A DNA stretch of 5,887 nucleotides from a virus. Below the pieces are notes generated by a model. That model saw only the letters and a list, made by a program, of their open reading frames with translations, did no database searches and was not told where the DNA came from. Positions 2,848 to 5,887 of this stretch are shown here, in pieces. A program made the translations under genes and the position numbers. Location: IMG/VR virus record IMGVR_UViG_3300045988_002166, positions 1 to 5,887 of that record. The stretch is one strand, 5' to 3'. Each line of letters begins with the position of its first letter. The first letter of the stretch is position 1.

Positions 2848-2874
2848 TTTTAGCACCTTCCTTTCTGTAATTAT

Positions 2875-2903
2875 ATTTTATCATTTTTTTAGAAAAAAGT
2901 CAA
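2875..2903 (-). promoter_or_regulatory. Sigma70/sigmaA-type promoter with extended -10
   Basis: The minus strand reads aaaatttcaaaaaaagc TTGACT tttttctaaaaaaatga TAAAAT. The -35 TTGACT is at 2903-2898, the spacer is 17 nt, and the -10 TAAAAT is at 2880-2875, preceded by TGa (extended -10). An A-rich UP-like tract lies upstream. It sits about 28 nt upstream of the first gene's ATG. Confidence 0.6.
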
Positions 2904-2962
2904 GCTTTTTTTGAAATTTTAATTGATATATTAGCAGTCGGTTTTGCTCCTTTGTTTTGAAT

Positions 2963-2976
2963 GGCGCTTTAGCGCC
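2963..2976. other. Short hairpin GGCGC-ttta-GCGCC, function unknown
   Basis: Perfect 5-bp inverted repeat with a 4-nt loop, about 60 nt upstream of the promoter -35. Related GGCGCT/AGCGCC arms recur at 3251-3280, and AGCGCT occurs at 3024-3029. Confidence 0.7.
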
Positions 2977-3037
2977 TTGCCGTATGGAGCGTATGCGGAA
3001 TGCGGCTTAATCCATTCATTTTTAGCGCTGTGCGCGT

Positions 3038-3149
3038 TTTCAACAGTTTCAACAGTTTCAACAGGTTTTCAACAAAATATTGCACAATGATTTCCGTCAT
3101 TTTGACGAACTTTCAACATTTCAACAAATTTTCAACAAATCTTTCAACA
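3038..3149 (+). repeat. Iteron-like array: 8 direct copies of TTTCAACA in two clusters of four
   Basis: Copies are at 3038, 3047, 3056 and 3067 (spacing 9, 9, 11) and at 3111, 3119, 3130 and 3142 (spacing 8, 11, 12), all in the same orientation. The 36-nt spacer between clusters contains the small hairpin CGTCA-ttt-TGACG (3095-3107). A given 8-mer is expected about 0.09 times per strand in a window this size. Confidence 0.9.
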
Positions 3150-3173
3150 CTGTTTTTTGCTTTTTATTTACGC

Positions 3174-3185
3174 TTTAACGTTAAA
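3174..3185. repeat. Perfect 12-nt palindrome TTTAACGTTAAA
   Basis: Read directly from the sequence. It lies between the iteron array and the DnaA-box-like motif. Confidence 0.8.
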
Positions 3186-3194
3186 TTTTAGCAC

Positions 3195-3211
3195 TTATCA
3201 ACTTTTCCACA
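3195..3211 (+). promoter_or_regulatory. DnaA-box-like motifs: TTATCAACT (7/9) abutting TTTTCCACA (fits TTWTNCACA)
   Basis: TTTTCCACA at 3203-3211 differs from the canonical TTATCCACA at one position and fits the relaxed consensus. It has the same orientation as the TTTCAACA repeats, three of which read TTTTCAACA (8/9 to the relaxed consensus). The function is inferred only. Confidence 0.3.
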
Positions 3212-3250
3212 TTGCCTACTACTACTCCTACAACAAGTTATATATTATAC

Positions 3251-3280
3251 GGCGCTTGTGAGCTTGCGAACAATAGCGCC
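3251..3280. other. Hairpin GGCGCT-(18 nt)-AGCGCC enclosing the -35 and spacer of a candidate weak minus-strand promoter; its -10 lies just outside at 3244-3249
   Basis: A 6-bp perfect stem. The minus strand reads TTGTTC (3273-3268), an 18-nt spacer, then TATAAT (3249-3244). Confidence 0.6.
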
Positions 3281-3287
3281 TAAAGAG

Positions 3288-3332
3288 TCGCGCGTGCGCG
3301 CGTGCGCGCTTCGCGCGCGTGCGCACGCGCGA
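3288..3332. other. Long GC-rich hairpin with alternating purine/pyrimidine arms, function unknown (candidate origin or structural element)
   Basis: 3288-3308 pairs with 3332-3312: 21 consecutive pairs (19 Watson-Crick plus 2 G-T) around a 3-nt loop CTT (3309-3311). 37 of 45 positions are G/C. The arms are built from CGCGCGTG-type units, and other pairing registers are possible. Confidence 0.9.
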
Positions 3333-3349
3333 TAAAGTATAGCTATTTG

Positions 3350-3367
3350 ATAGACTGAATAGACTGA
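3350..3367 (+). repeat. Perfect tandem 9-mer ATAGACTGA x2
   Basis: 3350-3358 equals 3359-3367. It lies between the Rep-proximal terminator hairpin and the GC hairpin. Confidence 0.85.
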
Positions 3368-3380
3368 TACATGGAGTCTT

Positions 3381-3423
3381 TAGACGACAAAAGCCCAGTA
3401 CCTTACTTGATAGGTACTGGGCT
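3381..3423 (-). terminator. Rho-independent terminator candidate downstream of Rep (VP4)
   Basis: The minus strand reads AGCCCAGTACCT-atcaagta-AGGTACTGGGCT followed by TTTGTCGTCT. This is a perfect 12-bp stem (3392-3403 / 3412-3423) with an 8-nt loop and a T-rich tail. It begins 11 nt after the Rep TAA (3437-3435). Confidence 0.6.
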
Positions 3424-3434
3424 AGGTGACACCG

Positions 3435-4454
3435 TTAAAGTGTCCCTTTCTTCTTCATCTGCTTCTTTATCACTCTCTCTTTCGTTTTGCACTGATCTGC
3501 AAAGTCTGCATTTTCGTACTTTAGTCGGTTTTCTGCTATGGCCGCTGCTTGTCTGTTCTGTTTAATTCTCCACAATCTTTGTGGGTTTTCCGCTTCCATC
3601 ATTTTTTCATAATAACGTGGAATTTGTGCGCGTTTGCCGTTTGTGCATTGGATATACCCTTGTTTCCAGATTTCTGCTTTGTGTTCTTGATAGTAGTGAT
3701 CTCCTAGACCTGGCTTAAGGCTCATACATGCAAAAGGTTTTTGTTGCCCTAGTTCGTAGTATGCGTTTGCTTTTTGACCGTCAATTTCGTACATCTTTTT
3801 TGTAACGTACCCTGCAACATATCTATATGTTGCTGGTACTGCTTGTGCTATTTGTATTTGACCCATGCCCCATAGGTCTGCCAGCCATTTACTCGTGAAA
3901 TATCCGTTGTGTTGTATCTTGTATAGGTGCTCTAGGTCTGTTGGTCTCCATCCATATAGAATCATATGGTAATGCGGCCTTGCCGTCTGTTCTCCGTATT
4001 CTCCCGCTACGAAATAGCGTAATTTGCCTCTATAAGCCTTCCTGAGGCGTTTTAAGAACTTTTGAACGTCAGTATATAGTAATGTTTGGACGCTTTCTGG
4101 ACGCTTCTCTCCCGGTTTCCAGACGTATTGCACTTTTCTCATGATTTCGCCTGTGTTTACAATCATTCCTGGTACGTGTTCATCGTCATAGGTTAACGTT
4201 ATAAACCAAACTTCTTCTCTTGGATAGTCTCGTGCTTCTAATTCTATTCGTGTTGTCCAGTCCTCCCTTTGTCTGATTCTGCATCCGATGCATTGCCCGC
4301 ATGGTATCAACATTACATCTTTTCTATACATTAAATCTTCATACTTTAGCTGTTTTCCCGCTAACTGAGAAAAGCGGGAGAGTGAATACACCCTCCCGCT
4401 AATGTTTTTGTCGTTAGGGTTGTACAGCCGTATTAACGGTTTGTAACAACTCAC
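3435..4454 (-). CDS. VP4: Rolling-circle replication initiator protein VP4 (HUH endonuclease, phiX174 gpA-like), 339 aa
   Basis: The sequence shows MSCYKPL... and the N-terminal Cys cluster PCGQCIGCRIRQREDW. It carries RCR motif 1 FITLTYDD, motif 2 (HUH) RPHYHMILYGW, and motif 3 with two tyrosines, YRYVAGYVTKK (compare phiX174 A protein YVAKYVNK). The start is GTG 4454-4452, overlapping the VP2 TGA (GTGA), with a GGTGAT SD-like element 8 nt upstream. Confidence 0.95.
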   Translation of the reverse strand: MSCYKPLIRLYNPNDKNISGRVYSLSRFSQLAGKQLKYEDLMYRKDVMLIPCGQCIGCRIRQREDWTTRIELEARDYPREEVWFITLTYDDEHVPGMIVNTGEIMRKVQYVWKPGEKRPESVQTLLYTDVQKFLKRLRKAYRGKLRYFVAGEYGEQTARPHYHMILYGWRPTDLEHLYKIQHNGYFTSKWLADLWGMGQIQIAQAVPATYRYVAGYVTKKMYEIDGQKANAYYELGQQKPFACMSLKPGLGDHYYQEHKAEIWKQGYIQCTNGKRAQIPRYYEKMMEAENPQRLWRIKQNRQAAAIAENRLKYENADFADQCKTKERVIKKQMKKKGTL

Positions 4455-5287
4455 TTTTTAACATCACCGCCTTTTCCACCGTGCGTTGCTCCGGCTTTAC
4501 TTTTGTGTGTTTTGCTTCCTTCTGGTACGTTTTTTTCAATTGCTTTGCTTGTGTCGTCTCCGATTCCGGTTAGTGTTTTCATCAGTCCGTAGGGTGTCAT
4601 TTGCGTTGTGCTTAGCATTTGTTGCCAGCTTTGTGCCGCGTTGTACCAGTCGCTTTTGCTCCAGCTGCTGCTTTCGTATGCGTTAGGTACAAATCCACCG
4701 CTTCGGCTTACTCCTAGTGCGCTGCTGCTTGCAAGTCCCATACTTGCCCCACTGATTGTTCCTGCACTTCCTCCCGGTGTGCTTGCGCCGCCGTTTGCGA
4801 ATGCTAAGATAGGGTTAAGCCCTGCTTTTTTCATGTCCTCAACGGCTCGCTGGTACGCTGTGCTTGACATGTGCTCTTGCCAGTTCCTGTTTGCTAGTGC
4901 TTCTGCGCTGTTGTAGTTCATTGCTACACTGTTTTCGATGTGGTTGTATACGCCTTGCATGATTGCTTGTAGTGTGTTATAGCCCATCTGTTTTAACATA
5001 CTCTGGCTGTTGTATTTGCCTTGCATGGCTGCTTCTTGTCCTTGGTATGCGTATGCCTGTTTTAGCCAGTCATTGACTTGCTGTACGTTGGTACCCGATT
5101 GACTTCCGCTTTCGGAGTGTCCGCCGCCTTGGCTTGTGCTGCCGCCGCTACTTTGGCTATTTCCTGTCTGTCCCCATCCGCCAAATGCTCCGGCTATGTT
5201 TTTAGCTGCTCCTGCAAAGGTTCCGATTGTGTTTGCTACGTTTCCCGCTACGTTTAGTGCTGTTAAGAGTCCAGATAGTCCACTCAT
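4451..5287 (-). CDS. VP2: Minor capsid / DNA pilot protein VP2, 278 aa
   Basis: The central block NRNWQEHMSSTAYQRAVEDMKKAGLNPILAF matches the conserved gokushovirus VP2 motif (N...W.E.MS.TAYQR.V.DMK.AGLNPIL), recalled from memory. The N-terminus is hydrophobic and Gly-rich, and there are Gly/Ser low-complexity segments. The position directly after VP1 fits. Confidence 0.9.
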   Translation of the reverse strand: MSGLSGLLTALNVAGNVANTIGTFAGAAKNIAGAFGGWGQTGNSQSSGGSTSQGGGHSESGSQSGTNVQQVNDWLKQAYAYQGQEAAMQGKYNSQSMLKQMGYNTLQAIMQGVYNHIENSVAMNYNSAEALANRNWQEHMSSTAYQRAVEDMKKAGLNPILAFANGGASTPGGSAGTISGASMGLASSSALGVSRSGGFVPNAYESSSWSKSDWYNAAQSWQQMLSTTQMTPYGLMKTLTGIGDDTSKAIEKNVPEGSKTHKSKAGATHGGKGGDVKK

Positions 5288-5326: not shown

Positions 5327-5887
5327 TTACAGTTTATACAAGCCCGGTACGCTGTATAGTGGCATCCGTCTTGTGGTTTTGTTCGCTATGCGGATAGCGC
5401 CGAAAAATTGCGGCTCATCCTGCACGACGAGTGTGCGTGCAATTTCGGTCTTGCCTTCTTCCATCCATTCTTGCGACAGTGTTGGTACGGTTGAATAATT
5501 GTCTGCGTAGTGCCAGAAATCCAACGTGCCTGTTGCGTTGCTTCGCATGAGGCCGCTTACCCGGTTTGGTTTCATTCGGTAGTCCGCCCAGGCTTCCTGA
5601 TAGCCAAACGTTTCTTCGTCCGTTGCCGTGCCGGTCAACATGATTTCCTTTTTCTTTACAGGCTGCTCTCCCAGGTTTGCAAACTGTGGTACATAATAGT
5701 CGAGCCTGTCGCTTCTGCTCCAGAAACGTTCCAAGCCTTGCTGATAACTGCGATTATGTCGCACACAACAGACACCAATTACAAACCCGTGTTCTTCAAA
5801 AGATTTGGTAAAAGAGCTTTCGTTTATCGGCGTTACTGACATTGCACCAGTTTCGCCCAGCGGTGACTTATCGTTTGCCGCTGTCTG
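5327..5887 (-). CDS. VP1: Major capsid protein VP1, 3-prime part (5833-5887 duplicates 1-55)
   Basis: Track ORF 5327..5842 stays open upstream to 5887 and is in frame with 1..1168 (position 1 = 5833). Length is 1168 + 506 nt = 1,674 nt = 557 codons + TAA (5329-5327). C-terminal motifs FGYQEAWADYRMKPNRVSGLMRS and LDFWHYADNY are typical of gokushovirus-type VP1. Confidence 0.96.
   Translation of the reverse strand, partial: QTAANDKSPLGETGAMSVTPINESSFTKSFEEHGFVIGVCCVRHNRSYQQGLERFWSRSDRLDYYVPQFANLGEQPVKKKEIMLTGTATDEETFGYQEAWADYRMKPNRVSGLMRSNATGTLDFWHYADNYSTVPTLSQEWMEEGKTEIARTLVVQDEPQFFGAIRIANKTTRRMPLYSVPGLYKL
5833..5887. repeat. Terminal redundancy, right copy (circular-contig overlap)
   Basis: Identical to 1-55. 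It lies inside the VP1 coding sequence, so it is not a biological terminal repeat. Confidence 0.97.

Follow-up and report, generated by a model that had tools for sequence, protein, structure and literature searches.

A GC-rich palindrome in an AT-rich intergenic region raises the question of what it does and on which DNA strand it does so. The window analyzed here, i.e., the whole stretch of 5,887 nt that makes up IMG/VR virus record IMGVR_UViG_3300045988_002166, is a circular gut gokushovirus genome, and its main intergenic region (2857-3434) holds such an element at 3288-3332 on the + strand, a hairpin of alternating purines and pyrimidines that is delimited by inverted-repeat search, folding, relatives and covariation and is referred to below as the GC hairpin. 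Our analysis establishes that the GC hairpin is a real, selected structure at the single-strand level. As to its function, we put forward the tentative proposal that it is a signal on the virion strand for initiation of the complementary strand, which works only if the strand antisense to the genes is the one that is packaged.

Sequence and folding of the GC hairpin

Inverted-repeat search delimits two arms of 21 nt each (3288-3308 and 3312-3332) around a CTT loop at 3309-3311, the full sequence being TCGCGCGTGCGCGCGTGCGCG-CTT-CGCGCGCGTGCGCACGCGCGA. Read by hand, the stem comprises 21 pairs, 19 of them Watson-Crick and two of them wobbles (G3300.T3320 and T3303.G3317), and 37 of the 45 bases are G or C. 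All these values agree with those of a first-pass annotation of the window, and the slipped registers that it had mentioned were likewise recovered by the search, among them a 13-bp stem with a 9-nt loop and, in addition, an 11-nt stem. Aligned as direct repeats, the two arms are 81% identical, and there is a periodicity of 8 nt. The alternation of purines and pyrimidines that had been noted for the arms runs unbroken over 21 nt (3289-3309) and 20 nt (3312-3331), in both cases beyond the approximately 12 bp of uninterrupted CG-rich alternation that characterize tracts prone to form Z-DNA. The surroundings are indeed rich in A and T, with a GC content of 0.26-0.30 at 3050-3250 versus 0.62 at 3250-3349.

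When region 3240-3380 was folded as single-stranded DNA (ssDNA), as the annotation had proposed for both strands, the + strand reached -42 kcal/mol (z = -5.2), a value equaled by none of 200 shuffles, and the minus strand reached -37 kcal/mol (z = -4.2), its stem being broken by two C.A mismatches. The better-folding + strand is antisense to every gene. A scan of the whole window against Rfam 15 with E values up to 1 gave no match at 3288-3332; the sole match with E < 1 is weak, unrelated and located at 4329-4404. Promoter scans of both strands found no site within 3288-3332, where the arms consist only of CG, TG and CA steps. Terminator scans of both strands did not flag the GC hairpin either, and a T-run is absent after the stem, the 3' flanks being ATAAAGTA on the + strand and CTCTTTAGG on the minus strand.

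Conservation and covariation among relatives

Relatives were collected by an exact-pattern scan of IMG/VR for the neighboring hairpin at 3392-3423, termed the nick hairpin for reasons given below, and 88 contigs were obtained. A hairpin of the same kind, 39-55 nt in length, occupies the same position in 84 of them. One of the remaining four carries a truncated arm; the hairpin is missing from the other three, of which one is a chimeric contig, one concerns a contig end and one a deletion. Among the GenBank relatives, the region is shared by eight, and each of these has a GC-rich alternating hairpin in the corresponding position, its sequence differing between relatives. Absence from close relatives, the outcome that the first-pass annotation had regarded as speaking against the element, is thus not what we found; rather, the hairpin is kept together with compensatory changes. 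There are 66 distinct sequence variants. Their loops read CTT, TTT, CTAT, TCTA and similar, such that a central pyrimidine-rich loop is kept throughout. The hairpin is retained although the modules flanking it vary on both sides and are in some cases inverted. To the left lies a conserved box (3216-3249 in the window) with or without a second hairpin (3251-3280), or, in the case of five genomes, an iteron block in inverted orientation. On the other side, variable inserts of 6-185 nt separate the GC hairpin from the nick hairpin, so that in all 84 clade members carrying it the GC hairpin is situated 6-185 nt 5' of the TACTTGAT hairpin on the same strand.

Covariation was assessed with a nearly gap-free alignment of 41 distinct sequences over the 21 pairs of the stem. 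In this set, 96.7% of the cells pair, and changes on both sides occur in eight of the 21 pairs (39 cells), T3295-A3325 being one of the covarying pairs. The observed covariation score was reached by none of 500 shuffles. When the register is slid by 2 nt, 84% of the cells still pair because of the dinucleotide period, but there are fewer double changes. A strand-symmetric census of the 66 variants finds A opposite T 170 times versus 11 times opposite C. Along the edges of a minimum-spanning tree, close variants differ by 36 exchanges between GC and GT, 11 between AT and GT, six double compensatory changes, four exchanges between GC and AC and two disruptive changes.

Pairing is confined to one strand to a considerable degree. 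Across the inner 20 pairs of the 41 sequences, the + strand forms 661 Watson-Crick and 156 G.T pairs (~19%) and has three A.C oppositions; the minus strand would pair in just ~80% of the cells. Accordingly, the + strand hairpin is the more stable one in 65 of the 66 variants, with a mean of -24.3 versus -18.8 kcal/mol. The wobbles G3300.T3320 and T3303.G3317 are conserved. At two positions, G.T is the majority state (30 and 32 of 41 sequences), and wobbles are therefore tolerated or favored rather than transient. The stems of the nick hairpin served as an internal control. In 135 distinct contexts they contain 1441 Watson-Crick, 16 G.T and nine A.C pairs, which shows that the G.T load is specific to the GC hairpin. 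Finally, the alternation of purines and pyrimidines is unbroken in all 820 cells of the 41 distinct relatives, i.e., only transitions have occurred.

The neighboring hairpin and the predicted nick site

The position of the GC hairpin has to be seen in relation to the perfect 12-bp hairpin that follows it at 3392-3423 on the + strand. Its arms, found as an inverted repeat, are AGCCCAGTACCT and AGGTACTGGGCT, its loop is TACTTGAT (3404-3411), and the sequence CTTGATA is located in the loop at 3406-3412. The phiX174 gene A protein and the Reps of the pC194 family cleave at CTTG^ATA. By analogy with CAACTTG^ATA of phiX174, the Rep protein of the window is predicted to nick between G3409 and A3410. 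The protein encoded next to this site fits the motif. VP4/Rep (3435-4454, minus strand; PF23343, E = 3e-18) is an HUH-type Rep with the HUH motif HYHMIL and a Y-x-x-x-Y motif in YVAGYVTK. On its 3' side the nick hairpin continues into a conserved, non-coding flank, CTAGGTGACACC (3422-3433), and this module abuts the VP4 stop codon (3435-3437, minus strand).

The arrangement is widespread among gokushoviruses. A matching architecture, CTAGCGTATAACAG-TCTACTTGAT-CTGTTATACGCTAG-GTGA, is present in the intergenic region of the Chlamydia phage Chp2 on the coding strand, and SpV4 has a weaker version of the nick hairpin, also on the coding strand. The pattern TACTTGAT-N8-16-CTAGGTGA occurs in at least 120 microvirus contigs of IMG/VR. 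The loop does not vary in any of 135 distinct contexts, whereas the stems, which are 98% Watson-Crick, occur with 67 different 5' arms that covary with the opposite arms. The CTAGGTGACACC flank is conserved even in gokushoviruses whose Rep is only ~30% identical to that of the window. No recognizable TACTTGAT...TAGGTGA element was found in the cultured Bdellovibrio phage phiMH2K (NC_002643). The first-pass annotation had taken 3381-3423 for a canonical terminator of the rep gene. In the window genome the hairpin at 3392-3423 does score as terminator-like on the minus strand and may also terminate the VP4 transcript here, but a gokushovirus-wide hairpin with CTTG^ATA in its loop is more likely the Rep nick site.

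As a side observation, the general nick-hairpin pattern also occurs in large contigs of Vibrio, Natronospirillum, Methylobacillus, Pelagibacteraceae and others (L207-L235). These may be integrated gokushovirus prophages and would then provide host assignments. The clade-specific version of the pattern had no matches in 185,579 species genomes, and there is thus no evidence of integration for the clade of the window.

Orientation of the nick hairpin and the packaged strand

We then related the orientation of the nick hairpin to the coding strand in genomes that have the nick-hairpin pattern and a clear coding strand. In genomes of up to 5 kb it is found on the coding strand in 80 cases and antisense in 10, whereas in genomes larger than 5 kb, nearly all of which belong to the clade of the window, it is antisense in 77 cases and on the coding strand in five. 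Base usage at four-fold degenerate sites follows the same division. On the coding strand of the window, A is used 307 times at such sites versus 64 times for T. The corresponding A/T skew of the coding strand ranges from -0.85 to +0.36 when the motif is on the coding strand (n = 85) and from +0.47 to +0.72 in the clade of the window, where it is antisense (n = 80). Five unrelated antisense genomes, with Reps ~30% identical to that of the window, have skews from +0.37 to +0.68. The separation is complete (Mann-Whitney U = 0, p = 2e-4), and across ~170 gokushovirus genomes the sign of the skew can be told without exception from the orientation of the motif. It is therefore always the T-rich strand that carries the nick motif. 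In phiMH2K, the coding strand is rich in A as in the antisense class, with a four-fold skew of +0.31 and a whole-genome skew of +0.29; the value of +0.31 is borderline between the two orientation classes.

T-richness is a hallmark of the packaged strand in ssDNA phages. Motif orientation, four-fold skew and wobble asymmetry, all read from the sequences, indicate that the + strand of the window is probably the strand that is displaced and packaged, although the wobble asymmetry may in part depend on the skew. From this we derive a wider proposal, the chances of which we regard as evenly balanced: the clade of the window and at least five to ten unrelated gokushovirus lineages would package the non-coding strand and thus be negative-sense Microviridae, with the inverted nick hairpin setting the polarity and with the GC/TG hairpin serving as a complementary-strand origin whose G-T wobbles are obligatory and which folds on the packaged strand but does not extrude as a cruciform when the DNA is in the double-stranded replicative form (RF).

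In the literature that was searched, all Microviridae are treated as coding-strand viruses (PMC3394797), and genes on the complementary strand are otherwise unreported (Roux 2012). Neither the GC hairpin nor the TACTTGAT nick hairpin nor Microviridae of negative polarity are described in the literature that was searched, including PMC9865509, PMC7062461, PMC9753089, PMC3394797 and PMC3135560. A literature search with the string TAGGTGACAC led mainly to papers listing primer sequences. This string is part of the SP6 promoter, which is presumably the cause of these matches.

Similar hairpins in other lineages

Comparison of the orientation classes, again with the genomes found via the nick-hairpin pattern, shows that a strong GC-alternating hairpin is restricted to the antisense class, where it is present in 74 of 77 genomes larger than 5 kb and in five of 10 genomes of up to 5 kb, versus none of 85 genomes of the coding class. 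Weaker versions exist in L123, L134 and L193 of the antisense class and in L172 and L185 of the coding class. A scan for the GC hairpin itself added approximately 10 microviruses of 4.5-5 kb. Wherever such a hairpin is present in a genome of microvirus size with an unambiguous coding strand, the strand with the T, on which the G.T pairs form, coincides with the motif strand or the T-rich strand and also gives the more stable hairpin. This rule holds irrespective of whether the motif or T-rich strand is coding (L172, L185) or antisense.

The distance between GC hairpin and nick hairpin extends from 6 nt to ~1 kb or more, with L123 and L134 having the GC hairpin ~1 kb 5' of the nick hairpin. The GC hairpin is therefore not a core part of the plus origin. 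When 140 genomes were folded in sliding windows, a strong motif-strand hairpin near the origin was clear just in the clade of the window (68 vs. 7); in the coding-orientation class there was a weak trend (35 vs. 17) with scattered positions. A GC-alternating hairpin at the 3' end of rep is not general, as it was found in one of 82 genomes of the coding-orientation class. Where such hairpins do occur at this place, in L134, L123, L172, L250, L279, L280, L297, L304, L330, L346 and L347, the final Rep codons are overprinted with a shorter CG/TG hairpin. The Arg-Ala tail (RARA..ARAR) encoded there in these small gokushoviruses uses GCG and CGC codons, contrary to the A/T-rich synonymous usage of the genomes.

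Possible functions of the GC hairpin

Our preferred explanation, that the GC hairpin is a virion-strand signal for complementary-strand initiation, is a tentative one, to which we assign somewhat less than an even chance. The following sequence of events is conceivable. A G/C stem of ~20 bp would stay duplex on ssDNA coated by single-stranded-DNA-binding protein, and this duplex island would mark the start of complementary-strand synthesis by the priming machinery of the host, for which RNA polymerase, primase or a PriA-type primosome are candidates. At 6-185 nt 5' of the predicted nick hairpin, it would be among the last sequences to be displaced. The G-T wobbles would keep the hairpin stable on the virion strand, and the C.A mismatches in the other strand would weaken cruciform extrusion and palindrome instability in the double-stranded RF. 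Tolerance of G-T pairs on one strand only fits a role in ssDNA, which is what a complementary-strand initiation signal needs. To this extent the suggestion of such a signal in an ssDNA virion, made in the first-pass annotation, holds; that it depends on packaging of the gene-antisense strand had not been considered. The GC hairpin also shares general features with single-strand origins in that it folds on the displaced and packaged strand, provided that the + strand is indeed the displaced one, and in that it lies 5' of the nick site on the same strand.

A number of observations weigh against this explanation. The literature searched does not describe a function for the GC hairpin, and known single-strand-origin motifs are absent from it, as there is no -35/-10 mimic, no loop motif of the CS-6 type and no Rfam match. 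A simple hairpin model offers no reason for the perfectly kept alternation of purines and pyrimidines. Furthermore, the + strand is T-rich genome-wide, and the four-fold degenerate sites predict ~4.8 G.T per A.C; part of the G.T excess could thus result from a strand-specific mutation pressure that makes the + strand T-rich. The ratio of G.T to A.C changes along the tree edges, 47:4, is only a marginal excess over ~4.8:1 (P about 0.05). The static ratio of 156:3 is far above it, yet these counts are phylogenetically non-independent because Rep in the clade is ~91% identical to that of the window. In three close relatives, L050, L095 and L021, the GC hairpin is truncated, loop-less or missing, and these variants may be either assembly errors at the palindrome or natural deletions, which would imply that the element is dispensable. 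Lastly, in L134, L123 and L172 the hairpin forms part of the final 10-20 codons of rep and codes for RARA..ARAR, so that a constraint at the protein level contributes there; in these genomes a nucleic-acid constraint is overprinted on a basic protein tail.

Two further explanations are unlikely but deserve attention. One is that the element works at the duplex level, with Z-DNA or a cruciform in the supercoiled RF absorbing supercoils and thereby tuning the adjacent promoter-like TATAAT box or helping Rep to open the nick hairpin. The two unbroken alternations of 21 and 20 nt, kept in 41 distinct relatives, would suit such a function, and so would the location beside a box with TATAAT in its reverse complement and 6-185 nt from the nick hairpin. 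Z-DNA, however, would form without the two arms being complementary, and the strong A-T/G-C covariation across them is then unaccounted for; moreover, TG and CA steps amount to the same thing in duplex DNA, where 156 G.T versus three A.C would be unexpected. A cruciform would in addition be penalized by the C.A mismatches on the other strand, and the alternation may merely reflect evolution by transitions via G.T intermediates. The arms are therefore alternating, as is typical of tracts prone to Z-DNA and as had been pointed out in the first-pass annotation, but Z-DNA explains neither the covariation nor the strand asymmetry and is a side property at most.

With a similarly low probability, the GC hairpin could be an accessory of Rep or of packaging, be it an aid to pausing or termination before the regenerated nick site, a binding site for Rep or VP5, or a packaging signal. 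In the clade it is always on the same strand as the predicted nick site and 5' of it, so that it would be displaced just before termination, and it is on the displaced strand that the hairpin forms. The packaging hairpin of filamentous phages is also located 5' of the origins. On the other hand, a hairpin of the same kind is found ~1 kb or more from the nick hairpin in L123, L134, L172 and L193, and 85 gokushoviruses with the same nick hairpin are without a GC hairpin. Moreover, the origin of phiX174 alone suffices for Rep-coupled packaging.

We consider it improbable that the GC hairpin has no dedicated function and is either a (GCGCGTGC)n repeat generated by slippage or a relic of a tract encoding the Arg-Ala C-terminus of Rep. 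The 8-nt periodicity and the 81% identity of the arms as direct repeats would be in line with slippage, any (CG)n tract is self-complementary by nature, hairpins related to this one code for RARA..ARAR within Rep in other lineages, and L050, L095 and L021 have truncated versions. A mere repeat or relic would hardly persist as a 39-55 nt hairpin in 84 of 88 relatives despite reshuffling of the two flanks, though, nor would it keep a central pyrimidine-rich loop throughout, place A opposite T (170 vs. 11 opposite C), show double changes in eight pairs and attain a covariation score that none of 500 shuffles reach.

Slightly more improbable still is a role as a transcription terminator, an insulator or a stabilizer of the 3' end of the VP4 (Rep) mRNA. 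The stem is very stable and GC-rich, and it is located downstream of the rep stop codon in the clade and at the 3' end of rep in L123, L134 and L172. Neither strand provides a T-run, however, the terminator scan does not flag the hairpin, and the mRNA-sense strand, with its C.A mismatches, is the less stable one in 65 of 66 variants. In L123, L134 and L172 the hairpin is placed 10-20 codons inside rep, and a transcript ending there would yield a shortened protein. It is therefore not a terminator, and a hard block to transcriptional read-through, as had also been suggested, is without support for the same reasons. Finally, a hairpin at the 5' end of a small antisense RNA, transcribed from the + strand and starting at the AT-rich box upstream, is very improbable: G-U pairs are well tolerated in RNA, the asymmetry favors the + strand and the GC hairpin is closely preceded on its 5' side by the motif TTATATATTATA, but the promoter scan found no sigma-70-like promoter upstream on the + strand that could feed such a transcript, there is no Rfam match and neither a conserved open reading frame (ORF) nor a terminator downstream, and in some lineages the hairpin resides inside rep.

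Genome organization and other intergenic elements

A terminal direct repeat of 55 nt (1-55 and 5833-5887) shows that the window is a circular genome with a unit length of 5832 nt, in which the VP1 gene spans the junction. Its nearest relatives are gokushoviruses from human and pig gut, with 84% identity to KX513868 and MG945514. All recognizable genes are on the minus strand. In addition to VP4/Rep these are VP1 (5327-5832 and 1-1126; 543 aa, Pfam Phage_F), VP2 (4451-5287), the scaffold protein VP3 (1165-1683), VP5 (1556-1795) and an M15 peptidase (2268-2666). A strong sigma-70-like promoter, TTGACT-17-TG-TAAAAT with 10 of 12 matches, is located on the minus strand at 2875-2903, directly upstream of an ORF for 68 aa (2650-2856), which is the first gene beyond the intergenic region and is followed by the gene for the M15 peptidase.

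The intergenic region contains further elements on the + strand. Eight exact TTTCAACA iterons, all in a single orientation, occupy 3038-3149, versus 0.36 expected, and none of 200 shuffles reach this number. Their interpretation as DnaA boxes was discarded, as the window is not enriched in TTWTNCACA when one mismatch is allowed (17 vs. 13.9 expected) but only in exact TTTCAACA. A perfect DnaA-box-like sequence, TTTTCCACA, is present at 3203-3211. It is followed by the highly conserved box CTACTACTACTCCTACAACAAGTTATATATTATA (3216-3249), which in most relatives directly precedes either the GC hairpin or the optional insert on the 5' side, and the reverse complement of which contains TATAAT. In five relatives (L004, L011, L026, L047 and L071) the box is replaced by the inverted iteron block, which abuts the GC hairpin. 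A dif/XerCD site was considered for the box and rejected: ~18 of 28 positions match E. coli dif by eye, and the XerD arm is poor.

The insert between the box and the GC hairpin is a second conserved hairpin at 3251-3280, identified by folding, with GGCGCT (3251-3256) and AGCGCC (3275-3280) enclosing the conserved loop TGTGAGCTTGCGAACAAT. Its variants GGCAC/GTGCC, CAGCGC/GCGCTG and CAACGC/GCGTTG preserve pairing, and many relatives are without this insert. Between the GC hairpin and the nick hairpin, a direct-repeat search found a tandem of two ATAGACTGA units (3350-3367) that contains TGAATAG at 3356-3362. Strings resembling TGAATAG also occur just 5' of the nick hairpin in distant gokushoviruses (e.g., CTGAATAGCCGTAGCACAG), and this repeat may be a Rep-binding element. 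TAGCGC and TAGCGT strings are present elsewhere in the intergenic region; the GC hairpin contains none.

Implications for gokushovirus replication

Gokushoviruses rank among the ssDNA phages that are most abundant in gut and aquatic viromes, and to our knowledge none of their cis-acting replication signals has been mapped so far. Two testable candidates are now available, on the one hand the gokushovirus-wide nick hairpin, consisting of stem, TACTTGAT loop, stem and CTAGGTGACACC, and on the other hand the one-strand hairpin of the clade as a possible start of the complementary strand. The agreement of orientation, synonymous skew and wobble asymmetry suggests that Microviridae are not uniformly positive-sense, contrary to the textbook view. 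If this is true, it affects the reading of strand-specific virome data, the orientation and annotation of genomes, and the design of synthetic 'resurrection' of uncultured microviruses from ssDNA or double-stranded DNA. The G-T wobble design could also be a generally applicable means by which a long palindrome stays functional on one strand and escapes the instability that cruciforms and SbcCD-type activities bring about in duplex DNA.

Comparison with known systems

The strictly alternating arms of 20-21 nt, mostly CG with some TG, recall Z-DNA tracts of the d(CG)n and d(TG)n kind. Z tracts, however, have neither inverted symmetry nor a strand preference, whereas the GC hairpin exhibits covariation across its arms and wobbles on one strand.

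For Microviridae in general, the n' (PriA) primosome assembly site of phiX174 and the oric hairpins of G4 have been cited (PMC9865509). These phages belong to the same virus family, and their sites, like the one proposed here, are intergenic hairpins on the virion strand that have been proposed or shown to start complementary-strand synthesis. They differ from the GC hairpin in sequence, to which there is no similarity, in composition and in being located far from the plus origin. Conserved hairpins between the Cap and Rep genes have been described for reekeekee- and roodoodooviruses on the basis of predictions with DNA parameters and compensatory substitutions, and were tentatively tied to negative-strand synthesis (PMC9865509). 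The likeness consists in intergenic hairpins that are conserved within a clade and show compensatory substitutions; the clades and sequences are others, and no link to strand asymmetry, a nick motif or polarity was reported (PMC9865509).

The single-strand origins ssoA, ssoU and ssoT of the rolling-circle plasmid families pT181, pC194 and pE194 are likewise orientation-specific folded ssDNA upstream of the double-strand origin. In the window, Rep is paired with a CTTG^ATA motif of the pC194/phiX174 type, and the exchangeable modules of the plasmids are comparable to the reshuffled flanks of the GC hairpin. The sso elements, however, are imperfect palindromes of 150-250 nt with RS_B and CS-6 (TAGCGT), whereas the GC hairpin comprises 45 nt and its loop contains neither RS_B nor CS-6 (TAGCGT/A).

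In f1 and M13, the minus-strand origin hairpins [B] and [C] adjoin the nick hairpin [D] and are needed only for the conversion of ssDNA to RF. These hairpins mimic a -35/-10 promoter for RNA polymerase, whereas the GC hairpin is without promoter-like hexamers, a -35/-10 mimic being absent from either strand of 3288-3332, and is a pure CG/TG alternation with a loop of 3-4 nt and without sequence similarity to them. The arrangement, in contrast, is alike: stable hairpins on the packaged strand, which in the window would be the + strand, are situated in the main intergenic region and directly precede, on the 5' side, the hairpin with the nick site, which in f1 and M13 is that of gpII. The GC hairpin is a member of the intergenic hairpins of ssDNA phages, which are already known as a kind.

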